Assembly (NCBI GenBank): GCA_934148845.1
Contig: CAKPDH010000001.1
Span: 251,963 to 315,962, forward strand
Direction: 5' to 3'
DNA length: 64,000 nucleotides
DNA from: an uncultured Bacilli bacterium
Lineage (GTDB): Bacteria; Bacillota_I; Bacilli_A; RF39; UBA660
Part shown: positions 9,404 through 60,912 of the stretch, piece by piece
Layout of the letters: the number at the start of each line of letters is the position of its first letter
How positions within the stretch are numbered: position 1 is the stretch's first letter
Position numbers and translations under genes: made by a program
The notes under the pieces: generated by a model
Databases searched by the model: none
What the model saw: the letters and a program-made list of their open reading frames with translations, nothing else
Told to the model about the DNA's origin: nothing

Positions 9404-9455
9404 AAAACCACCAAAAATATTATATCAAAAAAAAATAAGGATTTAAATCCCTATT

Positions 9456-10310
9456 TTAGTTTTCGTTATTCTTTCTTACTTTACATACTAAATAGATACT
9501 TTCGCCTACTAAGCATACTAGTAATACTAAACTTAAAATCATCCAAGCATTAGAATTATTTTCTTTTACAATTTCTTTAGGTTGATCTTCAGTTTTACAT
9601 TCTTTTTTTACAGCTATCTTAAATTTAACATCTTCAAGTCTTTTTTTAAAATCTGTCTTTTCATCACAACTTGGAAGACTTTCTACTGCTTTAAGTGCTG
9701 CTTCATAATCATCATCTTGTAATGATTTTTCACTAGCTTCTACTAAAATTCTAGCTTTCTTTATTGCTTCTTGCTTTGCAGCTTCTGCTTCTGCCTCTTT
9801 TTTAGCTTTTTCCTCTGCCTCTTTTTTAGCTTTTTCTTCTGCTGCTTTTTTTGCCTCTTCTTGAGCTTTCTTTTCTGCTTCAGTCATAGCTGGGTTAACT
9901 TTAATATCAATTGCTGCTGCAAGACCTGCATATGTATTATCGCCATCACTTGCTTCTACATTAACATTAATTCTACCAGTACCTACACTAGTACCTTTTA
10001 CTGTTATTGCAAATACACTAGTACCACTACTTACACCGCTTTGTGAATATAGAGCATATCTATTTCCACTTTGGCTCATTTTAACAAAACCGCTTTGTTC
10101 TTTAGCACTTACTAAAGCTATAGAACCTGATGTACTAAAAGTTATATCAGCACCTCTAACTTTACTTATACCATTAACTTTTACGTAAATAGTTGTTTGC
10201 TTATTTATCTTAATTGTATTTGTACCTGCTAAACTTACTGATGCTGCTTTAACACTTGGTACAACTATTAAACATAATAATAAAGCAACTAAATATTTTA
10301 ACTTCTTCAT
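9456..10310 (-). CDS. Secreted, membrane-anchored surface protein: N-terminal cohesin-like beta domain, KE-rich coiled linker, C-terminal TM anchor
   Basis: Signal peptide MKKLKYLVALLLCLIVVPSVKA. A roughly 120-aa beta-rich domain resembles cohesin (ISKVRGADITFSTSGSIALVSAKE...). An (EEKAKKEA)n repeat follows. C-terminal hydrophobic anchor WMILSLVLLVCLVGESIYLVC-KVRK. Confidence 0.45.
   Translation of the reverse strand: MKKLKYLVALLLCLIVVPSVKAASVSLAGTNTIKINKQTTIYVKVNGISKVRGADITFSTSGSIALVSAKEQSGFVKMSQSGNRYALYSQSGVSSGTSVFAITVKGTSVGTGRINVNVEASDGDNTYAGLAAAIDIKVNPAMTEAEKKAQEEAKKAAEEKAKKEAEEKAKKEAEAEAAKQEAIKKARILVEASEKSLQDDDYEAALKAVESLPSCDEKTDFKKRLEDVKFKIAVKKECKTEDQPKEIVKENNSNAWMILSLVLLVCLVGESIYLVCKVRKNNEN
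9791..9838 (-). repeat. 24-bp tandem repeat (two or more copies) encoding the (EEKAKKEA)n linker
   Basis: ctgcctcttttttagctttttcct occurs twice in a row, with degenerate copies after it. Confidence 0.6.
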
Positions 10311-10318
10311 AATTCCTC

Positions 10319-11761
10319 CTATTTAAATATTTTATCACATATTTTAACAATATCTGTTATATTAACTTTACCGTCACTATTCATATCGGCAGCCATAAAT
10401 TGCCAATCATCAAGCTGAATCTTTTTAAACATTTGATCACAAGCTTTAACAACGTCTGTTATATCGATAACTCCATTAGAGCTAACATCACCTTTTACAA
10501 TTACTTTATAATGTGCATATTTGCTATTGTTTCTCATAACAAAGATATAAGTACCTGTTGCAAGTCTATTATTGTGTTTATCCTCTGCAACAATAGTTCC
10601 ATAATCAGATCTTAATCTATTAACAAAATTTTTAAGATTTAAGTCTTTACCATCATAATATATAAATTCAAAAAGATGATCAATTTTTATGAAAGAACTA
10701 TCTGATTCATTCTTTAGCTCAATTGGATAACCGCCATATAAATGTGCCTCAGTATATTTATATGCTTCTTCTAATCTATCAATTATTTCTTTTTCATATG
10801 GATAAAAATATTTTGAAATCATTGGAGAATTAATTTTAATTTTTGAATTAATTGTAGCAAATCTTGCATTTACTTTATCTTCAACTTCTTTTATATAATC
10901 CATTATTTCATATAACTTATTATTTGCCTCAATCTTAGTTTCTGGTTCAAAAGGTAAAACCGCGCTGTCAATAATGTCAATACGATTATCAAGCATGCCT
11001 TGTAGTTTTTCCTCTATTTTATTATAAACTTTATAATAATCTTCCTTTATTTTTTTATAATAATCAGAAAAAATTTCTTTAAAATAATCATCATAATCTT
11101 CTAAATGATATAAATTATATAAATTTTGCCATTTATTTATTTTTTCTTCATACTTTGAATATATATCATTTACTCTATCAAATTCATCTAAAGCCAAGTC
11201 AAATAGCCTTCTTGCATCAGCTACACTATTTAATGAATTAACTTTACTCTTAACACTATCATAATACATATCATAATAGATCTTAACTAAATTTTTAACT
11301 GGAGATTTTAATTCTTTTATCTCAGATCTTAATTCAATAAATAAATCAAGACTTCCAGTAACCCCGCCTGATACATGACTATTTAAATAGTCCTCAATTA
11401 TACTTAAGGTTTCTTTTAAATAATCTAAATTAGAAACTAATCTAGGCTTAATACTTAAAAGACTATCACTAGCTTCAGTATAACCATTACGTTTTAACTC
11501 ATCTATTACTAAATCAATAGATTTACTATAGTCTAAACTATCGAACTTGTGAATAAATGCTTTACTGTATATACCCTTAACACTAGAAGCATAACTATTC
11601 GACCAATCAGTTAAATCGCTTACTATAGTTTGTGCAACAGCACCAGCACTATTTACTCTACTAATTACTTCTAATTGCGTATAACTTCTAGCACTTGTTT
11701 TACTTATAAAACATACAAACAAAAAAGCAGTAACTAGGAGTAAATTTTTAAACTTCTTCAT
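10319..11761 (-). CDS. Secreted dockerin-domain protein with a non-catalytic helical N-terminal region
   Basis: Signal peptide. C-terminus has two 22-residue dockerin segments, GDVSSNGVIDITDVVKACDQMF and ADMNSDGKVNITDIVKICDKIF. The second matches the canonical Ca-binding DxNxDGxVNxxD exactly. Confidence 0.65.
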   Translation of the reverse strand: MKKFKNLLLVTAFLFVCFISKTSARSYTQLEVISRVNSAGAVAQTIVSDLTDWSNSYASSVKGIYSKAFIHKFDSLDYSKSIDLVIDELKRNGYTEASDSLLSIKPRLVSNLDYLKETLSIIEDYLNSHVSGGVTGSLDLFIELRSEIKELKSPVKNLVKIYYDMYYDSVKSKVNSLNSVADARRLFDLALDEFDRVNDIYSKYEEKINKWQNLYNLYHLEDYDDYFKEIFSDYYKKIKEDYYKVYNKIEEKLQGMLDNRIDIIDSAVLPFEPETKIEANNKLYEIMDYIKEVEDKVNARFATINSKIKINSPMISKYFYPYEKEIIDRLEEAYKYTEAHLYGGYPIELKNESDSSFIKIDHLFEFIYYDGKDLNLKNFVNRLRSDYGTIVAEDKHNNRLATGTYIFVMRNNSKYAHYKVIVKGDVSSNGVIDITDVVKACDQMFKKIQLDDWQFMAADMNSDGKVNITDIVKICDKIFK

Positions 11762-15035: not shown

Positions 15036-15626
15036 TTATTTTTCCTTTTTAAATATATTGTAAATAATTGGATTATATTTAAAATAATCCTTTGACAAGT
15101 TCATTTTTTTAAATGTTCTTTTAAAGCCTTTCAATAAATAATTATCTTTGTAAATAAAATATTGCTTTTTCTTTTTCATAGGATTGTTTAACTGTTCATT
15201 ATGTAAATAAACCTCTTCATACGTACGTTCTTCATACAAAAATATTGGTAATATCTTGTTAATCAATTGTAATCCTTTTTCAGTTAAAATAATTACCGAA
15301 GATATTCCTGCTTTAATATCATCATTTATTTTGGAATCCTTGCTTAGACCCCAAAAGTCTCCAATCGTAATATCAGAGATTCTTTCTCTTTTTGCATAAT
15401 TACACTCATAACAATTTTCTCTATATATATTTCCTCTTAAAAAAATTTTATAATATTGATCCAAATGCATTTGTGATATATCTTCTAATTCAAATTCATT
15501 AAATAATTCAAACACTTCTTTAGATACTTCTATTTTATTTTTATCAAATACAACTATATATGTATTATTTTCTATAACAAGAGAATAAGGATTATCCTTA
15601 CTTTTTCTTCTCTTTGGTAAATTCAT
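15036..15626 (-). pseudogene. Truncated remnant of an FrhB-like (coenzyme F420 hydrogenase/dehydrogenase beta family) polysaccharide-locus protein
   Basis: NCYECNYAKRERISDITIGDFWGL...AGISSVIILTEKG aligns to the C-terminal half of the full-length paralogs at 20875..22047 and 42016..43164. There is no N-terminal 4Fe-4S domain. Confidence 0.5.
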
Positions 15627-20874: not shown

Positions 20875-22047
20875 CTACCTATGTTTAATTATGTATTTAA
20901 ATTTCTTTAACATTGATAAAAAACCAATTTTAGATAAAATATTTTTAATCAAATGTTTAATTCCTAAAATTTTCGTAATATCATATTTATTATTAAGTAT
21001 ATTATTAATAATTTTATCACGATTATCATTAATACTACACTTTTTAATAAGCGCAGGATTTTCTTTGAAAACTGATTTTAAATCAGTTTCACTAACAACG
21101 AACAATTTTGAAACACTTTCAAACAATTCTAATCCTGACTTTGAATTAATTATAACAGATGATGCACCTTTATTTCTACTTTTGATAAATAAAGATGAAT
21201 CAATCCCCCATGCATCACCTAAAATAATATCAGCTAATTCAAAATTGTTTTTCATTTGACAATTAGAGCATGCATTACGATCAAATAATCCCGCACCAAA
21301 CCCAACATAATAAGGGTCACTTACAACATCTACATGCGTATTATCATCAAAATAATATCTAGTATTTGGAGTTAACCATCCGCCTCTACCTTTATGCCTA
21401 AAATTAATATTAACTAACTTTTTATGATATTTATTTTCAACACTTTCTTTATATTTTTCAAAAATTAAAGGTGAAGGGACAGAGTGACATATAATTTGAA
21501 TGTAATACATATTATCATAGTTTTTTCCTAAATATTTTCTTATACCACTTATTTGACAAGCCATACCAAAAAAAACAACTTTACTACCTTTATTTAAACA
21601 TTCTTTTATACTTCTATAAATATTTTGAATATCAGATTGCACATATTTTGTACCGCTTAACTTATCTAAATCATTAATATCATTGGTTAAAATATGTTTA
21701 GCAACCATATTGTCCCAAACGCAACCACAAACATACCCACCATTTGAAATAATATTTTTTGCTATTTCATAACAAATACCAGAAGAAGTTGTCTTTTTTT
21801 CCAAAGTATTAAGCTCCTTTTTAAATAAGAACATACATTTTATAGGTTTCACATCTTCCGAACTCTCTTCTTGTTTTAATCTGGGACAGACTTTTTCACA
21901 TAATTTACAATCAATACATTTTTCTTTATCTATTTTCGGAATTAAAAAACCATCTTTATCATATTCCATAGTAATAGCATTTTTAGGACAAATATTTTTA
22001 CAAGCAGCGCAACCATAACATTTTTTATTAAATTCAAAATTAATCAT
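20875..22047 (-). CDS. FrhB-like protein (coenzyme F420 hydrogenase/dehydrogenase beta family) with N-terminal 2x[4Fe-4S] ferredoxin
   Basis: CYGCAACKNICP...CIDCKLCEKVCP near the start. C-terminal ...CSNCQ...ADIILGDAWG. Immediately downstream of a pyruvyl transferase. Confidence 0.8.
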   Translation of the reverse strand: MINFEFNKKCYGCAACKNICPKNAITMEYDKDGFLIPKIDKEKCIDCKLCEKVCPRLKQEESSEDVKPIKCMFLFKKELNTLEKKTTSSGICYEIAKNIISNGGYVCGCVWDNMVAKHILTNDINDLDKLSGTKYVQSDIQNIYRSIKECLNKGSKVVFFGMACQISGIRKYLGKNYDNMYYIQIICHSVPSPLIFEKYKESVENKYHKKLVNINFRHKGRGGWLTPNTRYYFDDNTHVDVVSDPYYVGFGAGLFDRNACSNCQMKNNFELADIILGDAWGIDSSLFIKSRNKGASSVIINSKSGLELFESVSKLFVVSETDLKSVFKENPALIKKCSINDNRDKIINNILNNKYDITKILGIKHLIKNILSKIGFLSMLKKFKYIIKHR

Positions 22048-42015: not shown

Positions 42016-43164
42016 TCACTTCCTAATAATACATTTTATAATTTCTTTTATCTTATTTATAATTTTATCTTTCGTTTTCTTTTTATATTTATTACCTCTA
42101 AAGTCCTCTTTTAGTAAACTATTAATATTCTTATTGCGATTTAAAAGCGCTATATCATTATATTTACCATTAAAAATTCTTGGATTATATTTTCTAAAAT
42201 CAAGCAAGTTTTGTTTTTTATATATGATTTCATTTTTAATGCTATCAAATAAATCACTACCAGTTAAATTATTTATAATTACAAGAGAAACACCATTATC
42301 CTTATTATCTTTAAAAAAATCTTTATCAATTTGACCTATGCCCCAAGCATCGGAAAGTGTAATATCACCTACTCTTGGTATAGTATTAAAATCACAATCA
42401 TAACAAGATTTCATCAAAAATAGATTTTTTAAATATGCCATAAACCATTCATCATTATAATGCTTATGCTTTGATACAATTTTATCACCATTAAAATATC
42501 CAAGCGAATAATTTGTCCAAGATTTATCTTTAAGTCTAAAATTAATGTTATTTACTCTTCCATTAAATCTAGATTTTAATGAATTATCGAATATTATTTT
42601 AGATGGAACACCATGACATGCTAAATCGACTACAATTAAATTAGAATTATCTATAATTTTTCTTATTGCCGCACATTGACAAGGTGTCCCAACAAATAAT
42701 ATTTTTTTAGACTTTATATTCTTTTTTATCTCATTATATATATTTCCAGGATAGCTTTGTATATATTTGGATCCTTGCATTTTAGATAAATCCGATACAC
42801 TATCTATTAAAACATGCTTAGCAGTATTATTTTCAAAAATGACTGAAGCAACCATTCCACCATAATCTAGTATTTTTTTTGCTAAATGATAAAATATTCC
42901 ACCAGATGATGATGTAGATAAAACTTTTTTATCTTTTGAATATGCAGAATATGATTTAATTTTATCCTTAGAGTTAGAATTTGTGAAAGATATTTTAGGA
43001 CAAATTTTTATACATAATCCACAATTTATACATTTATTTTTATCTATTCTATACTGATAAAAACCTTCTTTATTTAATTCTATTTTAATAGCATTTCTAG
43101 GACAAATATTCTTGCAAGCACAACATCCAGTACAGTTAAAGTTTAAATCTTTTAAATTACTCAT
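42016..43164 (-). CDS. FrhB-like protein with 2x[4Fe-4S] ferredoxin (second copy)
   Basis: CTGCCACKNICPRNAI...CINCGLCIKICP, and a C-terminal CYDCDFN...ITLSDAWG. Confidence 0.8.
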   Translation of the reverse strand: MSNLKDLNFNCTGCCACKNICPRNAIKIELNKEGFYQYRIDKNKCINCGLCIKICPKISFTNSNSKDKIKSYSAYSKDKKVLSTSSSGGIFYHLAKKILDYGGMVASVIFENNTAKHVLIDSVSDLSKMQGSKYIQSYPGNIYNEIKKNIKSKKILFVGTPCQCAAIRKIIDNSNLIVVDLACHGVPSKIIFDNSLKSRFNGRVNNINFRLKDKSWTNYSLGYFNGDKIVSKHKHYNDEWFMAYLKNLFLMKSCYDCDFNTIPRVGDITLSDAWGIGQIDKDFFKDNKDNGVSLVIINNLTGSDLFDSIKNEIIYKKQNLLDFRKYNPRIFNGKYNDIALLNRNKNINSLLKEDFRGNKYKKKTKDKIINKIKEIIKCIIRK

Positions 43165-44674
43165 GTGTTCTCCTTACTTTGTTTAATATTACTTTAAAAT
43201 TATTTCTCATTGCATGATCAAATAAATAAAATACTGAGAATATAACTAATAAAACTATAATAAAAATTACTAACATTACTAAAAACCATTTAAAGTAATT
43301 TGTACTAAATAATAAAACTTTACTTTCTAAAGGAAACAGCACAATACTTAATAAAACAAATGATAATATAACTATAATTGGTCTTATAATTAATGACTTA
43401 TATGATGCTTTTTTAAATACCTTTTTATTTATTAAACTAGTTCTTATAAATATTCCAACCAAGCTTGCAATAAATGTTGCAATTAAAATACCATTTATTC
43501 CAATAAGCTTTAATAAAATAATTGAAAGTATAATGTTTACTACAGATTCAATTATTGGAAAAAATCTACTTTCCTTAAATAATCCATTAGCTTGAATTAC
43601 AGTATTTATATTTGTTAAAATAATGTTTGATACAATAATTGCTGCAAAAGAACAACTTGATAAATAGTTAAGAATGTAATTAGGTTTATCTATCCATAGT
43701 TTAATAAAACTTCTAGCGCCCATTACAAAGCAAAATGAAATAACAAGAGTTACTGCTGAGAAAAATGAAACATAACTTTTATAATAATCTAATGTTTTTT
43801 TATCATCCTTAGCAAATGAATAACCAAATATATTACTTATCATTTGATTATTTTTATCAAATAATTCCCTTATAAAAGTAACAATATAATTATAAGATGA
43901 ATATATACTAACATAAACAGGTCCTAGAAAACTCATTAATAAAACAGTATCTACATTATTAAATATAACATAGCCTATTTGGTGAAATATCATATCTCCT
44001 GACATCTTTTTAGCACTTTTATCTGGAGTAGCCGATTTATCTAAATATGTATATTTCTTTTTACAATATGATGTAATTACTAAAGTTTCTAATATTTTAA
44101 ACAATAAGTTTACGATAACAATTGAAATTATTGAATTAGTTAATGAAACAACAAAAATTATTAAAATATCAGTAAGTAATCTAGAAATATTATAAACAAG
44201 ACCATAAGTAAATCTTTTTTGATCTGCTGTAAGAAGTGTTGTATAAGATCTAGTTCCACTTAAATAAGGTAAAGCTACAGCAAAAACCAACATAAAAAAG
44301 CAAAATGAAATTGTAATAAACAATTTAATTTCCTTTGTATACATATAAATAACAGGTAAAAGTATAACTGCTATTGATATAAAAATTATACCTATACCTT
44401 TTAAAATAGCCTTAGAACCATTAAATAATTCAGAAATCTTTTTATAATCATTATTAGCAACCGGCCTATACATTTTATATAATATGGCAGTTGAAATACC
44501 TGCCTCAGCAAGAACAATATATGATATAATATTATTTATAAACTGATAATATCCATTCATTTCAGAACCAAGTCCATGAATTATATATTTAACTTTTAAA
44601 AGTCCAACAACAGCTATTATTAAATAAAATATAGTTTCCATTACTGAATTTTGCAATATTTTCTTTAATTTCAT
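43157..44674 (-). CDS. wzx: Polysaccharide flippase (Wzx, MOP superfamily), second copy
   Basis: 505 aa with 12-14 TM segments. Confidence 0.75.
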   Translation of the reverse strand: MKLKKILQNSVMETIFYLIIAVVGLLKVKYIIHGLGSEMNGYYQFINNIISYIVLAEAGISTAILYKMYRPVANNDYKKISELFNGSKAILKGIGIIFISIAVILLPVIYMYTKEIKLFITISFCFFMLVFAVALPYLSGTRSYTTLLTADQKRFTYGLVYNISRLLTDILIIFVVSLTNSIISIVIVNLLFKILETLVITSYCKKKYTYLDKSATPDKSAKKMSGDMIFHQIGYVIFNNVDTVLLMSFLGPVYVSIYSSYNYIVTFIRELFDKNNQMISNIFGYSFAKDDKKTLDYYKSYVSFFSAVTLVISFCFVMGARSFIKLWIDKPNYILNYLSSCSFAAIIVSNIILTNINTVIQANGLFKESRFFPIIESVVNIILSIILLKLIGINGILIATFIASLVGIFIRTSLINKKVFKKASYKSLIIRPIIVILSFVLLSIVLFPLESKVLLFSTNYFKWFLVMLVIFIIVLLVIFSVFYLFDHAMRNNFKVILNKVRRTHE

Positions 44675-44675
44675 T

Positions 44676-45905
44676 CTACTCTCCCTTTAAATGTTTACAT
44701 ATATCATCAAGTGTCGCACTAACTATTTCTTTAGATGAAGAAACACTATCTGCTATTTTACTTTCTATACTGCTATCATTTTTTATATAATTGATTCTAT
44801 CGAAAACTAAACTCTCAAATTTCTTCCAAAAATTTTTTTGCTTTGCATCTAATACTAAGTTAGGAAATTTAAGACCATCAGCAATAACTCCTTTATATTT
44901 TTTACTATATGAAATACATATCGCTGGATGTCCCATTTGAAAGGTTGAAACTGCTGCATGCATTCTACAAGTTATTGTAAATTTGCCTAATCCAAGTATA
45001 ATTCTTGCTTCAACTGGAAGAATTGGTTTATCAATTAAAATGCAATTATTTGATATAAAATTATTATATTTTTTATCTATTTTTTTGTATAAAATGTTAT
45101 CATCTATTCCGTTTTTAGTAAACACATGAGCAAGACACACAACATTATACTTTTCTTTTATTAATCTTTTGATAAGATTATAAAAAGCATCTACCATTTC
45201 TTCTGGATTTTTTGAATAATTAGATAAAAGTCCTGTACCAACTACAGTTATATAATTATTTTCTTCTAAATTATACTTACCTAATATTTTTACTTTATTT
45301 TTAAGATATTCTTTTTGCAAGTTTAAATCTAGAAATGCTAAATCCCTAGACTCAAAAGAATCAGTACCTAGTACATTTTTTAAATATTTTTTTGTTTCTA
45401 AATCTCTTGTATAAATTCTTATATCCTTAAAAGTTTTCTTTGCAAGATTAATTCTCTTTCCTGTGTATGGACCAATAGTTTGTCCAACCATAATTAAATT
45501 TGAATTTGAATTAAATATTTTTAATTCTTCAAAAACAAATTTAACCTCTAAATTATCCTTAGGAAACTTATAATACACCTCAGAAAAATCATCTCCGCCT
45601 AAAATAATAATAGCATCATAAAATAAAGAAGCCTTCTTTACATGGGATTTTCTTCTTAATTTTCTTTCCAATACTCTAATATATTTGATTTTACCTGTAA
45701 GCAAATTAAATTTTAAAACATTATCACAGTATATATTATCATTTTTTGTTGCAATTCTTAAACGTTCAACATCTTGATAAGTATCAGCTTCTATGTAAAA
45801 TTTTACATCACTAATTTTTTTAGTAATATATGTTATTAAATTTTCTGCCATCATCATACTTCCATAATTATATGTATTTGAAATATTTTTTAAAAGTATA
45901 TTCAT
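44676..45905 (-). CDS. Polysaccharide pyruvyl transferase (second copy)
   Basis: 409 aa. Family-like N-terminus MNILLKNISNTYNYGSMMMAENLI. Confidence 0.7.
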   Translation of the reverse strand: MNILLKNISNTYNYGSMMMAENLITYITKKISDVKFYIEADTYQDVERLRIATKNDNIYCDNVLKFNLLTGKIKYIRVLERKLRRKSHVKKASLFYDAIIILGGDDFSEVYYKFPKDNLEVKFVFEELKIFNSNSNLIMVGQTIGPYTGKRINLAKKTFKDIRIYTRDLETKKYLKNVLGTDSFESRDLAFLDLNLQKEYLKNKVKILGKYNLEENNYITVVGTGLLSNYSKNPEEMVDAFYNLIKRLIKEKYNVVCLAHVFTKNGIDDNILYKKIDKKYNNFISNNCILIDKPILPVEARIILGLGKFTITCRMHAAVSTFQMGHPAICISYSKKYKGVIADGLKFPNLVLDAKQKNFWKKFESLVFDRINYIKNDSSIESKIADSVSSSKEIVSATLDDICKHLKGE

Positions 45906-47667: not shown

Positions 47668-47697
47668 AAGCTTCAGCCTTTGCTGAAGTCTTTTTAA
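47668..47697. terminator. Bidirectional intrinsic terminator (gcttcagc-ctttgc-tgaagtc)
   Basis: A perfect hairpin flanked by A-runs and T-runs, between convergent genes. Confidence 0.6.
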
Positions 47698-49424
47698 TAT
47701 GATAAATCATTTGTAGATGATGCAGTAGGTGCAAAATCACTCATAGGTATAGATATTACTGGTCTATATGTACGAAAATTTTCGTCTATGGATATTGGCA
47801 CAGTAGATATATATTTTTTATCTCTTTCATCTTCATAGCTATCTTTTTGAAATGCCATAGTTGTATTATCATAAAGATATCTTTTATTATTATTATATGA
47901 ATCTAATAAATCAAAAGAGTTTGGTGCACTAAGAGTATAACGACCATTAACCTCTGAAAGGGTATAGAACCTTAAAATGTCTTTCTTCGTATCAAGTAAA
48001 GCTTGAATTTCTTCTTTGGTAGCAAGCCTAGCTTTTAGGTTCGGTGCTTGCCAAGATGCATGACTTATATCAGATGAACTTGTAGCATATCTATTAAGAA
48101 TATATGTTGTATTACCTATTGTATATATTCCATAATATCCATTTGATGAATTTTTTGCATTATATGGATCCCTAAAATTTATATTAATATTTGGTACATT
48201 CCAATCTTTTGTTTCATTATAAATAGTTTGCATAATAGAAACAGGTCCAAATAAATTACTGATGGTACTTTCTTTAGGATAACCAAATTTGGCTTTTAAA
48301 TTATTAAAATCTGAGTTTTTTATCCAATAATATATATTAGGTACTCCACCATATTCAGATTCTGACATTAGATTTATTAGATTGTTTTCTGAATCTATAC
48401 TTAAAATATAATAACGTCCAAATAAAAGTTTATGATTATTAATCTTTTTTTTATCAGGCCCAGATATGTTACAATAATATTCATCGCCTATTTCAAATAT
48501 AAGTTTATTATTTTCATCTAATTTTGGAACAGTTGCAATAATAGCCCATTCTGGGTGCTTATAATGATCTGAAAGTACCTTATTTCCTCCAGCATCTATT
48601 GTAGCAATACAAGTAGAAGTTATACTTACTTTACACTCACCTTTAAGCTTTATATCATATGAAAATCTTGAGCCACTATATTTAACTTCTACACTGTAAT
48701 CAGTAACCGGAAGATCATTATAAGTAGTGAAAGCTCCTAAACCTAGCATATTTTCGTTTATAAGAGTTGATACTTTTATACAGTATGTATTTCCATCTCT
48801 CTCTGAAAATTTATCAGGATATTTTGATACAAACTCCTTAGCAGCACTTATTATAGCTTCTTTTATACATTCATCATTATTTGTAACAACTGTTATATCT
48901 GATAAAGCATCTAATTTAACATCTTTGATTATTTTAGGTATATATTTATAAACATTTTTTGTGGAATCATAATCCGCTAGCACTATACAAGCGCTACATT
49001 TTCCTTCTTTTGTACATTTATCATAGTCTATTATTTGTTCAGTACATTCATCTACCATTTCATAGTGATAGCCACCACTATATGTTACTTTTACTATGTT
49101 TTTAGCTTTTACATTTTCATTATCATAATCTTTTAGATAACCTTTTCCCTTTAAAGTATCTACAGCTACACAATATGTATTAGTTGTTACTTTAGGATAA
49201 TTACGACTGTTATCTGAAATATATAAATCTAATGCTCTAAATATTATATTTTCATAGCTAGTATTAATAGCAAGTTCCTTATTTTTAACACTACCTGTTA
49301 TTTTGGGTAGTACTATTAACATTATTCCTATAATTAATATTATTACACTAAGCAGTTCTATTAATGTAAAACCATCTTTAGATAATGACTCTCCCCCCCC
49401 CCCGAAGCGTACGTTTGTTTTCAT
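47694..49424 (-). CDS. Large type IV prepilin-like protein (class III signal, G|FTLIELL) with a 530-aa C-terminal extracellular domain
   Basis: MKTNVRFGGGGESLSKDG|FTLIELLSVIILIIGIMLIV, with Glu at +5. A G11 homopolymer lies in codons 7-11. Confidence 0.65.
   Translation of the reverse strand: MKTNVRFGGGGESLSKDGFTLIELLSVIILIIGIMLIVLPKITGSVKNKELAINTSYENIIFRALDLYISDNSRNYPKVTTNTYCVAVDTLKGKGYLKDYDNENVKAKNIVKVTYSGGYHYEMVDECTEQIIDYDKCTKEGKCSACIVLADYDSTKNVYKYIPKIIKDVKLDALSDITVVTNNDECIKEAIISAAKEFVSKYPDKFSERDGNTYCIKVSTLINENMLGLGAFTTYNDLPVTDYSVEVKYSGSRFSYDIKLKGECKVSITSTCIATIDAGGNKVLSDHYKHPEWAIIATVPKLDENNKLIFEIGDEYYCNISGPDKKKINNHKLLFGRYYILSIDSENNLINLMSESEYGGVPNIYYWIKNSDFNNLKAKFGYPKESTISNLFGPVSIMQTIYNETKDWNVPNININFRDPYNAKNSSNGYYGIYTIGNTTYILNRYATSSSDISHASWQAPNLKARLATKEEIQALLDTKKDILRFYTLSEVNGRYTLSAPNSFDLLDSYNNNKRYLYDNTTMAFQKDSYEDERDKKYISTVPISIDENFRTYRPVISIPMSDFAPTASSTNDLSY
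49393..49403 (-). repeat. Homopolymeric G11 tract (C11 on plus) inside the 5' end of the prepilin gene; candidate phase-variation switch
   Basis: ttc ggg ggg ggg gga gag encodes F-GGGG-E. An 11-nt G/C run in a genome of about 24% GC. Confidence 0.6.
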
Positions 49425-51653: not shown

Positions 51654-52388
51654 TCAAGAGTCATGATTTAATAATTTATTTATTATTAATAATATAATAA
51701 CTATTAGTCCTGTTATAAATAATTTAAATGTAAAATTATTTATAAGCGTTATAAAAAACTTAGAAAAATAACTATTTGTATATACAAATTTATCAAATAT
51801 ATTAAATATTTTTATAACTAGATATGGACATAATAATAATATTGAGCTTGAAAGTATGCTCGTTTTTAAGAATTTTTTATCTTTATTTAATATTAATAAT
51901 ATAACACTAATAACTATTATTACAGTTATCACTGATATAGTAATAAAGAGCTTATTATTTAAATATAATTTATGAATCATATTATATTCACGAGTTGGAA
52001 ATAAATTATATGTATATATATCATTTATTTCCTTAGCGTATCTTTTATTTATTGATATATCATTTGTATATGAATCTATAATATTATAAAGATCTATATA
52101 TCTATTAACACTCTTACCATTTATAATATTTTTTATATCTGATTTTATCATATTAATTGTAAAATATTCTAAATACTTATTTTTAATTTCCTTATTTATT
52201 ACAAAATTACTTACTTCTTCTTTTATATTATTGAATGCTAAATCATAATAGTTAATTTTATTTAAATTATTTAAAATACTTTTTTTAGTAAGTGTACTTT
52301 CAAGTGATATAAATAAAGTAAAAATAGTTAAAATAATCATAAGAGTAAATGATAAAACATGACTAATACTACTTTTCATTTGTATCAC
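51654..52388 (-). CDS. Hypothetical membrane protein
   Basis: 244 aa. N-terminal TM, mid TM and C-terminal TM segments. No motifs. Confidence 0.5.
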   Translation of the reverse strand: MIQMKSSISHVLSFTLMIILTIFTLFISLESTLTKKSILNNLNKINYYDLAFNNIKEEVSNFVINKEIKNKYLEYFTINMIKSDIKNIINGKSVNRYIDLYNIIDSYTNDISINKRYAKEINDIYTYNLFPTREYNMIHKLYLNNKLFITISVITVIIVISVILLILNKDKKFLKTSILSSSILLLCPYLVIKIFNIFDKFVYTNSYFSKFFITLINNFTFKLFITGLIVIILLIINKLLNHDS

Positions 52389-53538
52389 CTAACCATTCAC
52401 TTTTAATATTTTCTAAATATACAACTATTCTTTTATTACCGTATATATCTTTATTAGGATAACAAGTATATAATATAAGATCATAATCTTTTTTTATACT
52501 ATCATAATTATCTTCTAAAACGATCTTACTTGTCTTTACTTCATATGTAAATTTGCCATAAACTGTTTCTATAACTACTTTATCCGATTTTTTTAAGGAA
52601 TGTAGTTTTTTAAATATGCCTGTATTATGAGCTGATAGTACTGTAGCATTTTCTTCACCCGGCATAGAACTAAAGCTAGCTTGCCCAATTCCATCTTTAA
52701 GTATACTAGAACTATCTCCAAAATATACATCATCACTATCATCATCTATATATAATTTGCCATATTTTTCTCCATAAGATGGATATGATATTATTTTTTC
52801 ATCTTTAGCTACTACTTCTTTTTTAGAATTACTATAATTAACATTCATAAGAGTAATTATATCAAGATACATACTTATTTTATCATTAAATATTAGCATT
52901 ATAGGTAACAATAATATTGTTATATAAAGTAAACTTGTTAAAATTATAGATTTATATTTTAAAATTTTAAGAATGATTACAGATATAAATGTAATAATTA
53001 AAGTTATTATAATATATTTAAGAATTTTATTCATACCTACATAATTAAGTTTATCTTTTGTACTAATAACATCAGATAAAACACCATTATCATAAATTTT
53101 AATCTCATTTGTACTAGTATCTATAATAACCTTTGAAGTATCTTTACTAGTATTGGAATTATCATTAGAATCACTATCTATAATTTTCTTAGAGTTAAGT
53201 ATAATATTACTTGTCTCATTATATAATGAATATAATTCATTCTTTAAGTAATTAGGTATTTTATTTTTATCCTCAACTGAGCATACACTATATTCATTAA
53301 TTCTATTAACAACATATTTCATATTATTATATATTTTATTTAAATCACTTTCACTAACATCACGCTCATTTAATAATCTAGTATAAGATGCTTTAGTACC
53401 ATTTACAAGTGCTTGAGTTTTAGATGAACAAGTTTTAATACTAGAAGCTAAGGATATGATATCTTCTTTTGTATATGCATATACATTTGGTATTATAGCA
53501 ATTAAAAACATAATCATTAAAATTCTTATATATTTCAT
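52369..53538 (-). CDS. Sortase-domain protein with an extra N-terminal secreted domain and two internal TM segments
   Basis: C-terminal catalytic domain has VLSAHNTG (His), LILYTCYP (the TLxTC Cys) and NKRIVVY (Arg). The N-terminal 170 aa follow a signal peptide. Confidence 0.55.
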   Translation of the reverse strand: MKYIRILMIMFLIAIIPNVYAYTKEDIISLASSIKTCSSKTQALVNGTKASYTRLLNERDVSESDLNKIYNNMKYVVNRINEYSVCSVEDKNKIPNYLKNELYSLYNETSNIILNSKKIIDSDSNDNSNTSKDTSKVIIDTSTNEIKIYDNGVLSDVISTKDKLNYVGMNKILKYIIITLIITFISVIILKILKYKSIILTSLLYITILLLPIMLIFNDKISMYLDIITLMNVNYSNSKKEVVAKDEKIISYPSYGEKYGKLYIDDDSDDVYFGDSSSILKDGIGQASFSSMPGEENATVLSAHNTGIFKKLHSLKKSDKVVIETVYGKFTYEVKTSKIVLEDNYDSIKKDYDLILYTCYPNKDIYGNKRIVVYLENIKSEWLGDTNEK

Positions 53539-54278
53539 TTTATCTTCTCCCTAGCAAATAGTTTATTTGTTTTAATTATTTCATATGGTTCTACTTTTTT
53601 ATTTGAAATTATTTTATTAAAATTTTCATATACTATATCATTATACATATCATAATCTACCATATGTCTTAAAATACTTAGTCCTTTATTTATATCTAAA
53701 ACATGGTTATGTGTATCTGTACCAATGACATGTACCATATGCTTTTTTATTAATAATAATGCATTTTTTCTAACTCTTTTTCCATACTTATCTATAAGAG
53801 AAGTAATATTCATTTGAAATAGGCAACCCATATCTATTAGTTTTATAAAATCTTCTATTTTTAAATATCTATATCTTTCAGGGTGCGCTATTATAGGAGT
53901 TATACCTTTATCTTTAAGATTAAATATTATATCATACATATAATTTGACCTCTCATTTAAAGGAAACTCCATAAGTAGATACTTAGTATTATTTATTGTA
54001 GATATAAATTTTTTATCTATATATGCTAAAATATCATTATCTATAAAAGTTTCATTACCTAAATATAATTTAATATTTGTATTTTTTTGTAATTTTTCTA
54101 ATAATTGTTTTTTTTCTTTATTACTACTATTATAATTTGTTCCTATTATATAATGTGGAGTTAAGACTATATTTTTAATTCCTAACTTCTCCATTTCCTT
54201 TAATAATTTTACACTTTCCTCATATGATTTTGATCCATCATCAATACCATATAAAATATGAGTATGAATATCATTCAT
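53535..54278 (-). CDS. cpsB: Capsular polysaccharide tyrosine-protein phosphatase (PHP family, CpsB/YwqE)
   Basis: MNDIHTHILYGIDDGS...HPERY. Confidence 0.85.
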   Translation of the reverse strand: MNDIHTHILYGIDDGSKSYEESVKLLKEMEKLGIKNIVLTPHYIIGTNYNSSNKEKKQLLEKLQKNTNIKLYLGNETFIDNDILAYIDKKFISTINNTKYLLMEFPLNERSNYMYDIIFNLKDKGITPIIAHPERYRYLKIEDFIKLIDMGCLFQMNITSLIDKYGKRVRKNALLLIKKHMVHVIGTDTHNHVLDINKGLSILRHMVDYDMYNDIVYENFNKIISNKKVEPYEIIKTNKLFAREKIK

Positions 54279-54943
54279 TATTTATAATACTCATTATAAT
54301 AGTAACTACTGTGTTTTCTTTTAATTTGATTTACAACAATACCTGCTAGCTTAATACCAGTTACTTCTAAAGATTTTTTAGTTTGCATTAAAGACTCTAT
54401 TGGTGTTTTCTTATATGCACTTACAATAATTGCCTCATCGCAAAGTGAAGTAAGTATTAAAGCATCTGGAAGTCCTTGTATTGGTGGACAATCTAGTATA
54501 ATTAAGTCATACTCTTTCTTTAATATTTCAAGTAATTCTTTATTTTTTGCAGAACCAAGTATTTCACTTGGATTTGGTGGTACTATACCTGACTTTAATA
54601 CATATAAATTATCTACTTCAGTTTTATTTATATATTTTTTATAATTTTTTATATCATCAAGTAATAAATTAGATAATCCTGTTTCTTTATCTAAATCAAA
54701 TATTTTAGCTTGAGTTCCCCTTCTTAAATCACAGTCTATTATAAGGGTTTTCATATTAACCATAGCAAATGCAGCTGCTAGGTTAGATGATATAAAACTT
54801 TTCCCCTCACCTGGCATAGAACTAGTTACCATAATTGTTTTAACATTATCATCAATAAAAGTAAATTGTAAATTAGTTCTAAGAGTTCTAATAGCTTCAC
54901 TTGTAGCCCCTTTAGGTTTAGATAGTAATACTATATTATTCAT
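54278..54943 (-). CDS. cpsD: BY-kinase (CpsD/YwqD tyrosine-protein kinase)
   Basis: Walker A SSMPGEGKS, Walker A' DCDLRRG, and a tyrosine-rich C-terminal tail SSYYYNEYY. Confidence 0.85.
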   Translation of the reverse strand: MNNIVLLSKPKGATSEAIRTLRTNLQFTFIDDNVKTIMVTSSMPGEGKSFISSNLAAAFAMVNMKTLIIDCDLRRGTQAKIFDLDKETGLSNLLLDDIKNYKKYINKTEVDNLYVLKSGIVPPNPSEILGSAKNKELLEILKKEYDLIILDCPPIQGLPDALILTSLCDEAIIVSAYKKTPIESLMQTKKSLEVTGIKLAGIVVNQIKRKHSSYYYNEYYK

Positions 54944-55610
54944 GTTTACCTCCTACTGTTGGAACTTCACCTATTACAGGTAATTCTAATTTTCTTTCAA
55001 CTTCTTCTATACTTTTAATTGTTGTATCAAAGTAAAATAGAATAAATACTACACCAAAACTTAATATAATACCTATAAAAAATGATATTAATAAAGTTTT
55101 AAGCATATTGATATTATAAGGACTTTCTTCTTCTACCGCTTCATCTACAATACCAATATTTTGAATATTATATAATTTTACTACCTCACTATTAAATACA
55201 TTAGCAGTTTCATTTGCAACATCCATTGCGATTTTACTATCTCTATCAGATACACTTATCTTAATTATTTCAGTATCATTTATACTTGATACACTTATCT
55301 CTTTACTTAAAGATTCAAAATTATAATCTATATTTAAGTTATTAATAACTTTGTTAATAACTTTTCTACTTTTAATTATTTCTCTATATGTATCAACTAA
55401 ATTTTTATTTAAAGTAATATCATTGCTAGTTATTTGATTAACATCACTTCCCTTAGTTAATAATATTGTAGTATAACTTTTATACATTGGTACTTTAAAA
55501 AATCTAAAGTAAACAAATCCTGTTAAAATACACACAATAGTAATTAATATAATATATAATTTTTTTGATAAAAAATAATCAAACATTTCTTTTAAATTTA
55601 TTTCTTCCAT
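54936..55610 (-). CDS. cpsC: Chain-length determinant / BY-kinase modulator (Wzz, CpsC/YwqC)
   Basis: N-terminal and C-terminal TM segments flank an extracellular domain. The C-terminus ends in ...PVIGEVPTVG. Confidence 0.8.
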   Translation of the reverse strand: MEEINLKEMFDYFLSKKLYIILITIVCILTGFVYFRFFKVPMYKSYTTILLTKGSDVNQITSNDITLNKNLVDTYREIIKSRKVINKVINNLNIDYNFESLSKEISVSSINDTEIIKISVSDRDSKIAMDVANETANVFNSEVVKLYNIQNIGIVDEAVEEESPYNINMLKTLLISFFIGIILSFGVVFILFYFDTTIKSIEEVERKLELPVIGEVPTVGGKHE

Positions 55611-57902: not shown

Positions 57903-58916
57903 TTATACTGATGGAATAGCGCATGTATCTTTTTTATATGAAATAGAAGTACCGGGTGGAAATGCATTTTCTCCAATAGTAACATCGCCCTCACATGCAT
58001 ATATTACTACTTCCTTAAGATTAGAATTATTATAAAACGCATAATCACCTATTGTTAAAGTAGATGGAGTAACAACCATTGCTAATAAAGAAGCATCTAC
58101 CTTTTTATTTTTAGAATTAAATACACTTAGATTTGTATCATCGTCTCTTAGACTAGTATCACTACTAACATAATTTCCTATATATAATTCTTTTATATTA
58201 TTGTTACTAAAAGCATATGAGCCTATTGTCTTAACAGAACTTGGAACATACAGTCTAGTTAAATTATTGTCTTCAAAAGCATTTGACTCAATAGTTGTAA
58301 TATAATAATCAAGTGTTACTGACTTTAAACCTTTACCTTTAAATGTTGAGCTTCCTATTTTAGAAATAGATCCGTCCCCTACATATATATTTTTATTATC
58401 ACAATTATAAGCTATATAACTTGAACTATTTTTAGTATAACAACTATCTTTTGGAACAACTTTACATCCATTTACATTTTCAACATTAAAATTATTTCTA
58501 CTTGAATCTATTGATATCGAATAATTGCTATATTGAAGATCATATATATTATCTACCTCACCATTTTTTATAACAATTTCCCCGCAAGATGGTCTATCAT
58601 TTTGAATACCTATATTTAAAGACCCACCATTAATTGAAAGTCCTCTTTTACAGCTTAAATCAGAATTTATTCCATTTAAACAGAAATTTCCATCACTATT
58701 TATAAAATATATTCCATCACGAATATAATAGCCTTTTACTTTTAAGTTAATTATATCAGCATCTAATACATTTGCATACATTCTAGCACTGCTAATAGCG
58801 CTATTTTTTTTAGAATCACTTATTACATTTAATACTATTGGAGTAACAATAGTAGCAACTATTCCAAGAAGTAATATAACTGCAAGCAATTCTATAAGTG
58901 TAAATCCCTTTTTCAT
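57903..58916 (-). CDS. Type IV prepilin-like protein fused to BspA-type leucine-rich repeats
   Basis: True start is MKKG|FTLIELLAVILLLGIV, with the RBS ggtaggtga 4 nt upstream. The longer track ORF would begin upstream of the promoter. The C-terminus has ...IESNAFEDNNLTRLYVPSSVKTIGSYAFSNNNIKELYIGN... LRR units. Confidence 0.6.
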   Translation of the reverse strand: MKKGFTLIELLAVILLLGIVATIVTPIVLNVISDSKKNSAISSARMYANVLDADIINLKVKGYYIRDGIYFINSDGNFCLNGINSDLSCKRGLSINGGSLNIGIQNDRPSCGEIVIKNGEVDNIYDLQYSNYSISIDSSRNNFNVENVNGCKVVPKDSCYTKNSSSYIAYNCDNKNIYVGDGSISKIGSSTFKGKGLKSVTLDYYITTIESNAFEDNNLTRLYVPSSVKTIGSYAFSNNNIKELYIGNYVSSDTSLRDDDTNLSVFNSKNKKVDASLLAMVVTPSTLTIGDYAFYNNSNLKEVVIYACEGDVTIGENAFPPGTSISYKKDTCAIPSV

Positions 58917-58922
58917 ATATTC

Positions 58923-58960
58923 ACCTACCATTAATATAATTATAAAAAAAAAGACATATA
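58923..58960 (-). promoter_or_regulatory. Sigma-A promoter of pilin::LRR gene 1 (TTGACA, 17-nt spacer, TATAAT) with a T9 tract in the spacer
   Basis: Minus strand reads ttgacaatatatgtctttttttttataattatattaatggtaggtgaatatATG. Confidence 0.6.
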
Positions 58961-58963
58961 TTG

Positions 58964-59305
58964 TCAATTCTTTATTAATTGTTTATTTTTAATATTATTT
59001 ACCCTATTATATTTTTTTATTATATCTTTACTCAATAAATAATCAATATAAGAATCAATAGAATAAAAGTTAATTTCTTTAAATATATAGGTAAAATACT
59101 TACTATATATATTCAAATATTTATTAATATCTAATTTAACTATATTTAGTTCCATATTTGTAAGTCCCAAATATAAACCTAATATCTTTTTATCATTTAT
59201 AGACAATATTTCACCTTCTATACTTATCTCTAAATTCTTAATTAAATCATATACATACATACCTCTATATATAGCACTTTTAACTTCAATCAATTCTTCC
59301 TTCAT
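58964..59305 (-). CDS. Hypothetical protein between the two pilin::LRR genes
   Basis: 113 aa with no motif. Coding status uncertain. Confidence 0.4.
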   Translation of the reverse strand: MKEELIEVKSAIYRGMYVYDLIKNLEISIEGEILSINDKKILGLYLGLTNMELNIVKLDINKYLNIYSKYFTYIFKEINFYSIDSYIDYLLSKDIIKKYNRVNNIKNKQLIKN

Positions 59306-59382: not shown

Positions 59383-60861
59383 TTATCCTGTATAAGTTAC
59401 ATCTCCATCAGTATATTTAATAACCGTTCCTTTAGGAAATACGCTTGATCCAAATGTAACGGCCCCTTTAGGGCTATTAATTGTTACTGTTGGATTGTAA
59501 TATTGTTCCTTACAACCATTTGACTTATAGAAAGCTTTGTAACCTATATAACTAATTCCACTACCAATAGTAATTTCTCTCAAAGGATTGCAATGAAATG
59601 CATTATCTTCTATACTAGTTACACTATCTGGAATTATTATACTAGTTAAGTTGTTATTTTCGAAAGCTTTGGAACCTATATCACTAAGACCATCTGGTAA
59701 AACTATCTCAGTTAAATTGTTATTTTCGAAAGCCCCTCTCGCATAATTACTTCCAATAGTTTTAAGCTCAGATGGTAACGTTAATTTAGTTAAATTAGTG
59801 CTTGCAAATGCACCTCCTGATATCGTAGTTATTTTATTTGGTAAAACTAATGTTTCTAATTTATTACCAGCAAAAGCATCATCACCTATACTTGTTACAC
59901 TATCTGGAAATTCAATTTTTGTAATGGAATTATAGCCAAATCCAGTTAATTCCGTAAGCTTAATATCATTAGGAAATTTAATTTCAGTAATATTGTTACC
60001 CTCAAAAGCATATTTACCTATACTTGTTACACTATTTGGTAATTCTAGTGTTCCTGTTATATTGTTATATCTAAATGCAGCATCACCTATTTTTTTTATG
60101 TTTTTTCCTAAATTAACTTTATCTATTTTCATTGCATTTATAGTAAAATCTTGATTGCAAAAAGCACATGTACCAATTGATTCAACACTATTTGGAATAT
60201 CTAAGATTCCAGTAATATTGTTACCCTCAAAAGCATATTCACCTATACTCGTTATATTACTTGAAAGAATAACTTTTGTAATGTTTTTTCTGTTAAAAGA
60301 CCATTCACCAATGACATTTACATCATCTGGCATTATAACACTCCTAGGACAGAAATTATAATTAGTACTATTATTTTCGTTATCATAGTATCCAGTAACA
60401 GCCTTTTCGGTAATTGCAAAACAACCACTAAAGCATTTATATCCTTCTTCTACTGTATAATTATTATTAGTCTTGTTTATTGAATATTTGCTAGATTGAA
60501 CATTTTCAAGTTCACTTACTTTTCCATCACTTACCCTAACGTAACCACAAGAAAAATTATTTGATTTAAGTCCTAAATCAATAGTTTTACCTGAGCAAGT
60601 GGAATCAGCTTGGATTATTCCAATACAAAGTAACCCATTATTCATAATAGAATAAGTACCATCACCTATTTTATTTTTATTCATTCTTTCATTTATAATA
60701 GCTTCATTAACAGCTTTTACATATACTTTAGCACTGTTAACAACGCTTTCTTTTTTTGAATCTTCTATTACATCTAGTGCTTTTGGTACTGTTATTAAAG
60801 CTATGAAGCCAAGTATTAAAATAACAGCTATAAGCTCTATTAATGTAAAACCTTTTTTCAT
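59383..60861 (-). CDS. Type IV prepilin-like protein fused to BspA-type leucine-rich repeats (paralog 2, more repeats)
   Basis: Start MKKG|FTLIELIAVILILGFI. More than 10 LRR units (NNITGILDIPNSVESIGTCAF, NNITGTLELPNSVTSIGKYAFEGNNITEI...). Confidence 0.6.
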   Translation of the reverse strand: MKKGFTLIELIAVILILGFIALITVPKALDVIEDSKKESVVNSAKVYVKAVNEAIINERMNKNKIGDGTYSIMNNGLLCIGIIQADSTCSGKTIDLGLKSNNFSCGYVRVSDGKVSELENVQSSKYSINKTNNNYTVEEGYKCFSGCFAITEKAVTGYYDNENNSTNYNFCPRSVIMPDDVNVIGEWSFNRKNITKVILSSNITSIGEYAFEGNNITGILDIPNSVESIGTCAFCNQDFTINAMKIDKVNLGKNIKKIGDAAFRYNNITGTLELPNSVTSIGKYAFEGNNITEIKFPNDIKLTELTGFGYNSITKIEFPDSVTSIGDDAFAGNKLETLVLPNKITTISGGAFASTNLTKLTLPSELKTIGSNYARGAFENNNLTEIVLPDGLSDIGSKAFENNNLTSIIIPDSVTSIEDNAFHCNPLREITIGSGISYIGYKAFYKSNGCKEQYYNPTVTINSPKGAVTFGSSVFPKGTVIKYTDGDVTYTG

Positions 60862-60867
60862 ATAATC

Positions 60868-60912
60868 ACCTACCATTAATATAATTATAGAAAAAAAGAT
60901 AAATATTGTCAA
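60868..60912 (-). promoter_or_regulatory. Sigma-A promoter of pilin::LRR gene 2, near-identical to the promoter of gene 1 (T7 tract in the spacer)
   Basis: Minus strand reads ttgacaatatttatctttttttctataattatattaatggtaggtgattatATG. It overlaps the mutS stop. Confidence 0.6.

Follow-up and report, generated by a model that had tools for sequence, protein, structure and literature searches.

Can two neighboring genes, one for a secreted protein that ends in a dockerin and the other for a membrane-anchored protein with a cohesin-like exported domain, form a docking pair at a cell surface that has nothing to do with cellulose? The question is raised by a 64-kb stretch of contig CAKPDH010000001.1 from an uncultured Bacilli bacterium (the whole of this stretch is called the window here), in which the 9456..10310(-) product of 284 residues, named P1, follows the 10319..11761(-) product of 480 residues, named P2. 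Cohesin-dockerin pairs are known above all for holding cellulosomes together, and they are valued as orthogonal, ultra-tight connectors of proteins. A first-pass annotation of the window took P1 and P2 to be such a pair in minimal form, and both open reading frames (ORFs) are found on the minus strand where it had placed them. We think it rather probable that the pair is a dedicated one-to-one surface display unit of the cohesin-dockerin type, in which secreted P2 would dock in a calcium-dependent manner on membrane-anchored P1.

P2 ends, as judged from its sequence, in a genuine dockerin. The Pfam family Dockerin_1 (PF00404) matches residues 423-472 at an E-value of 3.8e-5 and 24.2 bits, above the gathering cut-off of 22.9, with alignment to profile positions 1-50 of 57, and the same family is precomputed for 9 of 13 P2 homologs. 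A profile of the P2 family matches the solved dockerins 8x39, 4uyq_B, 2y3n_B and 1ohz_B and nothing else of note. The tandem arrangement proposed at first pass is borne out by two segments of 22 residues each, DVSSNGVIDITDVVKACDQMFK and DMNSDGKVNITDIVKICDKIFK, that are identical at 12 of 22 positions (8-12/22 in every family member); each is opened by a calcium loop of 12 residues, DVSSNGVIDITD and DMNSDGKVNITD, with Asp, Asn or Ser at loop positions 1, 3, 5, 9 and 12 of both loops, a pattern conserved in all 14 pairs. The second segment also carries an invariant Cys at its position 17. The two segments are nearly symmetric at positions 10-12, 14-15, 17-18 and 21-22, which by analogy with type I dockerins would allow a dual binding mode. 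No region of P2 is as well conserved among 14 orthologs as the dockerin, whose mean pairwise identity of 0.68 compares with 0.53 in the body and 0.48 in the small beta module that precedes it; taken together with the recurrence of the pair in all related loci, this conservation indicates more than chance.

The remainder of P2 is predicted to be a long helical protein rather than an enzyme, as was suggested at first pass. In the AlphaFold2 model, made from an alignment of 14 sequences, the helices of the body span residues 29-338 at a predicted local distance difference test score (pLDDT) of mostly 75-95, and the beta module comes next, at about residues 345-422. Neither Pfam nor NCBIfam nor PHROGs gave a match for the body, enzyme families included, and it has no significant fold match in the PDB (best E-value 0.095); the beta module has no Pfam match. 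Two candidate functions for the body, a pore-forming toxin and a polysaccharide lyase, were dropped because of this lack of a significant fold match: no ClyA/Hbl-type toxin, spectrin or lyase fold was matched in the PDB. The family alignment shows no C-terminal hydrophobic segment in P2, and neither P2 nor P1 gives any phage signal in PHROGs.

P1 is predicted to bear, at its exported N-terminus, a domain that is cohesin-like by fold. In the AlphaFold2 model, made from an alignment of 12 sequences, residues 24-139 form ten beta strands at pLDDT >90, and the flattened beta-sandwich (a jelly-roll, nine-stranded in cohesins) can be superimposed on solved cohesins. The five best Foldseek matches of the model in the PDB are the non-cellulosomal cohesins 2jh2, 2w1n and 2vo8 of Clostridium perfringens, with E-values of 1e-8 to 7e-8, target-normalized template-modeling (TM) scores of 0.73-0.75 and root-mean-square deviations (rmsd) of 2.5-2.7 A over ~130 columns; 2jh2 gives an E-value of 9.8e-9, TM 0.73 and rmsd 2.7 A over 129 columns, and 2vo8 a TM of 0.75. 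The Archaeoglobus cohesin 2xdh is the seventh match (E-value 1.5e-6, TM 0.60), and several type II cohesins are also listed, so that cohesin matches overall range over E-values of 1e-8 to 1e-6, TM 0.60-0.75 and rmsd 2.5-4.3 A. The next fold class, that of the complement MG domains, matches much more poorly, with TM ~0.4 and rmsd ~7 A. The structural likeness on which the first-pass proposal depended is thus found in the predicted model. In that model a conserved GNRYxLY motif would lie, because of the strand order, in the sheet that corresponds to the dockerin-binding sheet of canonical cohesins.

The remaining architecture of P1 is that of a stalked membrane protein. The beta domain is the part most conserved across relatives, and it is followed by a helix of 53 residues (144-196), the first part of which is the (EEKAKKEA)n spacer encoded by a 24-nucleotide x 3.5 tandem repeat at 9780..9862. 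Two further helices complete a three-helix module, after which the model has a disordered juxtamembrane stretch and the C-terminal membrane helix (254-283); spacer and membrane anchor both agree with what had been read at first pass. The homolog P0037 has a Thr-rich linker in place of the helical spacer, consistent with a pure spacer role for (EEKAKKEA)n. The three-helix module equals the beta domain in its number of invariant positions and may therefore bind something itself; its sub-threshold matches are to a GA-like domain (PF22775, E-value 0.0075) and, weakly, to staphylococcal Efb-C three-helix bundles (PDB 2gox and 9n20, E-values 0.04-0.1). No conserved LPXTG-like pentapeptide precedes the membrane helix in the alignment of 12 members, and P1 is therefore regarded as membrane-anchored and not as a sortase-linked protein. 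The membrane helix has a nearly invariant Glu (E270) and Tyr (Y273) in the family alignment (window 9459..9596(-)), and most P1 homologs have a Cys-rich, CxxC-like juxtamembrane stretch, of which a single Cys is left in the P1 of the window.

The two genes form an operon with strict synteny. They are separated by 8 nucleotides, and the AGGAGG ribosome-binding site of P1 overlaps the P2 stop codon, which suggests translational coupling. The palindrome GGATTTAAATCC beyond P1 was not called in a terminator scan because its stem holds only two G-C pairs. P1 lies directly after P2, in the same order, in all ~17 related loci that have a full-length P2 homolog (L001-L012, L020, L023, L024-L026 and L027, plus the same-species contigs L028 and L029), and P2 without P1 was never seen among the loci examined. 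This order and spacing is kept in relatives that have diverged to 30-45% identity, and the flanking genes are wholly different between lineages. Hidden Markov models (HMMs) of the dockerin and of the beta domain, run against the 64-kb window and the 10-kb flanks of 12 relatives, found no second dockerin and no second cohesin-like domain, pointing to a unit of one anchor and one cargo and not to a multi-enzyme scaffold.

Both families are tiny and restricted to uncultured gut Bacilli. A phmmer search of 1.84 billion representative sequences with the P1 beta domain gave ~18 true relatives of identical architecture, together with three spurious repeat proteins, and a P1 profile search of a set of 5.8 billion proteins gave two fragments only. 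The relatives of P1 and P2 occur only in metagenome bins labeled uncultured Bacilli, Tenericutes, Bacillales or Clostridium sp., many of them from human gut. PBP, MraY and FtsW genes lie near the pair in L020 and L027, an indication that these organisms make peptidoglycan.

On the reading that we favor, P1 would be exported and kept in the membrane by its C-terminal helix, holding its single cohesin-like beta-sandwich off the membrane on a helical stalk composed of the charged helix and the three-helix module. Secreted P2 would then dock non-covalently onto this sandwich through its C-terminal dockerin, with its two calcium-binding loop-helix segments, and docking would retain the elongated helical body on the cell surface. 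We infer the physical binding of P1 and P2, its calcium dependence and its stoichiometry from these features. The displayed body is most likely a structural or adhesive component of the envelope and not an enzyme, a role that is favored because of the capsule, sortase and pilus genes that neighbor the pair and because all enzyme signatures are absent from it.

This genomic company, which is absent from the first-pass annotation, is recurrent. In L001 and L027 a row of seven genes encodes Wzz, a CpsD-type kinase, the CpsB phosphatase, a sortase of 380-391 residues with a long N-terminal extension, a multi-pass membrane protein of ~246 residues, P2 and P1. The window has the same first five genes as a module ~40 kb upstream of the pair, with PriA and two polysaccharide clusters in between; its 244-residue multi-pass membrane protein has no family match. 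A SpaA-type pilus and sortase cluster adjoins the pair, on either side, in L003, L006, L007, L011 and L012. In the window the pair has polysaccharide clusters on its flanks, and in L024 one follows it. The setting of the pair is thus non-cellulolytic, as had been supposed: it consists of capsule and pilus loci and not of carbohydrate degradation, there is no carbohydrate-active enzyme as cargo, and one dockerin and one cohesin-like domain are all that the 64 kb and the flanks of the relatives contain.

The most divergent P1-like proteins extend the capsule association. P0041 (L019 2667..3449) and P0040 (L021 3523..4275), at 28-30% identity, are encoded directly after CpsB, and in L021 the P0040 start codon overlaps CpsB. 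Both keep the three-helix module and the membrane helix, and in both the otherwise invariant GNRYxLY of the beta domain is degenerate. That P2 always occurs with P1 but P1 sometimes occurs alone is the asymmetry expected of an anchor and its cargo, and it leaves room for a capsule-related role of the anchor itself.

A number of results weigh against a cohesin-dockerin contact. The first-pass annotation had named two Pfam models as the check on its proposal, and of these Dockerin_1 is found in P2 above its cut-off, whereas Cohesin (PF00963) has no match in P1 or in 12 family members at E-values up to 10, nor in isolated P1 domains. An HMM built from 23 P1 beta domains found no cohesin among all PDB sequences, and hhalign of P1 with CipA cohesin 2, the query sequence of which was checked against 1ohz_A and 1anu, gives a probability of 0.14%. 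The resemblance to cohesin therefore stands in the predicted fold (2jh2, 2w1n, 2vo8, 2xdh) and fails in every test of sequence, and since the fold matches without a match in sequence, the domain is named cohesin-like and is not filed in PF00963. The beta-sandwich also has a weaker likeness to MG and CLIPPER domains. The dockerin region of P2 was modeled as three helices (434-445, 451-459 and 468-479) at a pLDDT of ~45. Finally, no P2 gene lies upstream of P0040 or P0041, so P1-type proteins can exist without an adjacent dockerin partner.

These results give room to a different account, which we consider possible but doubtful, that P1 and P2 belong to capsule or exopolysaccharide loci as envelope components linked in function but make no cohesin-dockerin contact. 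The P1 beta-sandwich would then bind polysaccharide or the Wzz/CpsD machinery in the manner of a carbohydrate-binding module (CBM) or Ig-like module, and the calcium-stabilized dockerin of P2 would have another partner or none. Such an account draws on the five capsule-type genes directly before the pair in L001 and L027 and present in the window, on the divergent P1-like proteins that follow CpsB without P2, on the polysaccharide clusters that flank the pair in the window and L024, and on the failure of P1 in all cohesin sequence tests. It is harder to reconcile with cohesins being clearly the best structural match of the P1 model, with the constant presence of P1 beside P2, and with the greater conservation of the dockerin than of any other part of P2, which argues for a conserved protein partner; moreover, many loci are flanked by pilus or housekeeping genes and not by cps genes. 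We regard it as improbable that the adjacency is meaningless, with P1 as a surface protein of generic Ig-like type and P2 as a secreted protein unrelated to it that carries an orphan dockerin. Orphan dockerins are common, many genomes reportedly having dockerins but no cohesins, and P1 lacks a cohesin sequence signature, but order and spacing have persisted at 30-45% identity while the flanks changed completely, and the position of the AGGAGG site suggests that the two genes are translated together.

Least credible, and largely refuted, is a minimal cellulosome-like system for polysaccharide degradation under SigI/RsgI control, the analogy that was drawn at first pass from an alternative sigma factor near the pair. 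A sigma-70 family gene does lie directly upstream of P2, with only a 42-residue ORF in between. However, the NCBIfam models that fit it best are those of SigK and SigE, with scores of 107 and 72 bits vs cut-offs of 252-349; SigI does not appear in its 25 best families, and no RsgI-like gene stands beside it. Outside the same species (L028, L029) the sigma gene does not adjoin the pair, and no other genus has it there. The SigI analogy was rejected on these grounds. Neither family nor fold searches gave a catalytic or carbohydrate-binding domain in P2, the 64 kb hold no second dockerin or cohesin, and neither the window nor the 10-kb flanks examined in 12 relatives contain a multi-cohesin scaffoldin or dockerin-fused carbohydrate-active enzymes. 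The sigma factor also matches the phage sigma family phrog_351 at an E-value of 1.5e-28. The 42-residue ORF could be a small membrane protein or a chance ORF.

A surface display unit formed by P2 docked on P1 remains the reading that we prefer. A broader form of it, which we put forward as tentative and rather unlikely in its entirety, would have the sequence-orphan cohesin family and its dedicated dockerin belong, as an integral accessory, to the Gram-positive capsule loci (Wzz-CpsD-CpsB-sortase-membrane protein-P2-P1) of uncultured gut Bacilli. The contact would tether a helical protein that organizes, coats or anchors the capsule or envelope, in place of enzymes, and the anchor alone would persist in the capsule-regulator operon of a sister clade. 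The coordinates of the features discussed are collected in Table 1.

Table 1. Features of the P2-P1 pair and of associated genes in the window
Feature	Position	Strand	Basis
P1 gene, 284-residue membrane-anchored cohesin-like protein, proposed anchor	9456..10310	-	ORF, alignment, AlphaFold2 model
P1 signal peptide, residues 1-22, ...VKA/AS	10245..10310	-	read from sequence
P1 predicted cohesin-like beta-sandwich, residues 23-140	9891..10244	-	pLDDT >90, Foldseek cohesin matches
P1 charged (EEKAKKEA)n helical spacer, residues 141-177	9780..9890	-	AlphaFold2 helix, tandem repeat
P1 three-helix module, residues 178-238	9597..9779	-	many invariant columns, pLDDT ~90
P1 C-terminal transmembrane helix, then basic tail, residues 254-284	9459..9551	-	alignment, AlphaFold2 helix 254-283
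P2 gene, secreted 480-residue dockerin protein, proposed cargo	10319..11761	-	ORF, family alignment, AlphaFold2 model
P2 signal peptide, residues 1-24, ...KTSA/RS	11690..11761	-	read from sequence; pLDDT <50 over residues 1-25
P2 elongated helical body, residues 26-340	10742..11686	-	helices of 35-47 residues, pLDDT 75-95 (AlphaFold2)
P2 small beta module, residues 341-422, directly before dockerin	10496..10741	-	strands 358-422, pLDDT ~85
P2 dockerin, residues 423-480, two calcium-loop + helix segments	10322..10495	-	PF00404 match, PDB dockerin matches
AGGAGG ribosome-binding site, overlapping P2 stop codon, 4 nucleotides before P1 ATG	10311..10320	-	sequence read
Weak terminator-like palindrome GGATTTAAATCC, then T-run, closing the two-gene unit	9427..9450	-	sequence read
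Unannotated 42-residue ORF MKILLIILFILVLLIYFVMFCAIRVASIISNMEDKEESSYKN, one hydrophobic helix	11850..11978	-	between sigma gene and P2
Sigma-70 family gene, directly upstream of P2	12030..12740	-	family models
Wzz, CpsD kinase, CpsB phosphatase, 389-residue sortase, 244-residue membrane protein	51654..55610	-	Pfam; BLAST to L001, L027

The window as a whole has a G+C content of ~24%, with nearly all genes on the minus strand, and it includes the housekeeping genes for AlaRS, ProRS, RRF, UvrC, PriA and MutS as well as two large polysaccharide-synthesis clusters. The 389-residue sortase of the CpsD tyrosine-kinase module has a signal peptide, an extracellular stretch of ~150 residues and membrane helices, followed by its catalytic domain, which lies at the C-terminus and contains an LYTC motif. 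Its mature N-terminus (52369..53538(-)), YTKEDIIS, resembles that of P2, YTQLEVIS (YTEEEVVN in relatives), each right after the signal-peptide cleavage site; BLAST gave no significant similarity of P2 to the N-terminal domain of the sortase (E-value 0.29), despite the short motif common to both. The five pilus loci encode a VWA/GBS104-like tip pilin of 755 residues, a SpaA pilin of 462 residues, two sortases and a signal peptidase.

Surface proteins are abundant across the entire window. A 576-residue protein (47694..49424(-)) has a prepilin-type N-terminus (GFTLIELL) on a large non-pilin body with no family match, another (57903..58967(-)) has a prepilin-type N_methyl N-terminus fused to a BspA-type LRR_5 domain, and a third, of 509 residues (59383..60912), is a BspA-type leucine-rich repeat protein. 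Within the polysaccharide clusters, a gene for a 390-residue ferredoxin + FrhB-like protein (20875..22047(-)) is paired with a polysaccharide pyruvyl transferase gene; a 196-residue ORF (15036..15626(-)) with a C-terminal FrhB/FdhB domain only resembles a truncated copy of it. A second flippase and pyruvyl-transferase pair is found at 43157..45905.

Cohesin-dockerin systems outside the cellulosome are established in C. perfringens toxin complexes, amylosomes and mucinolysomes (PMC4611034, PMC12997984). What appears to be new here is a predicted cohesin-like family that is orphan in sequence, its fixed bicistronic pairing with a non-enzymatic helical cargo, the restriction of the pair to uncultured gut Bacilli, and its repeated association with loci for capsule regulators, sortases and pili. 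As a natural cohesin-dockerin pair it would be minimal, a single anchor and a single non-enzymatic cargo encoded by the same operon, in little-known uncultured gut Bacilli. Many genuine cohesins are detectable by AlphaFold2 structure prediction only (PMC13463774), and P1 adds to the recent indications that sequence models miss many cohesins. The recurrent location of the pair near genes for capsule regulators, an unusual sortase and pili points to a part in cell-surface construction and not in polysaccharide digestion. If binding is true, the pair would supply a new orthogonal cohesin-dockerin pair for protein engineering and a handle on the surface biology of these gut Bacilli.

Among known systems, P2 resembles the type I dockerin of Clostridium thermocellum Xyn10B, solved with CipA cohesin 2 (1ohz), in its duplicated 22-residue calcium-loop and helix segments, in their internal symmetry and in the match to 1ohz_B. 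Unlike the C. thermocellum cellulosome, the pair shows no detectable sequence similarity between P1 and CipA cohesin 2 and has no multi-cohesin scaffoldin, CBM, enzymes or S-layer homology (SLH) anchoring. To the SigI/RsgI regulation of cellulosomal genes (PMC6582324) the sole likeness is an alternative sigma gene nearby, which is SigK/SigE-like at sub-threshold scores, has no RsgI and is not conserved with the pair. The cohesin fold in a non-cellulolytic organism is shared with Archaeoglobus fulgidus 2xdh, whose archaeal, thermophilic protein has another architecture and no membrane anchor.

Closer parallels are found in two groups of systems. The glycoside-hydrolase toxins of C. perfringens carry non-cellulosomal cohesin (X82) and dockerin modules (PDB 2jh2, 2w1n, 2vo8; Adams et al. 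2008, cited in PMC12997984). They share with P1 and P2 a single cohesin per protein, a role outside cellulose degradation and a dockerin partner on a separate secreted protein; in C. perfringens both modules are parts of large enzymes, can be recognized from their sequence and lack a membrane anchor. P1 and P2 differ in the non-enzymatic helical cargo, the sequence-orphan cohesin-like domain and the fixed bicistronic pairing. Scaffoldins with a single cohesin and a C-terminal membrane helix in place of SLH anchoring occur in H. luporum, C. cibarium, Lachnoclostridium sp. MSJ-17, Ruminococcus difficilis and relatives (PMC11557425, PMC13463774). P1 is like these anchoring scaffoldins in its signal peptide, one predicted cohesin-like domain, linker and C-terminal membrane helix, and some of their cohesins, as the P1 domain, are detectable only by AlphaFold2 (PMC11557425, PMC13463774). 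In their genomes there are tens of dockerin proteins and additional scaffoldins, with partners that are often unclear, whereas P1 and P2 present one anchor and one adjacent cargo in small-genome uncultured Bacilli, with capsule and pilus loci nearby.

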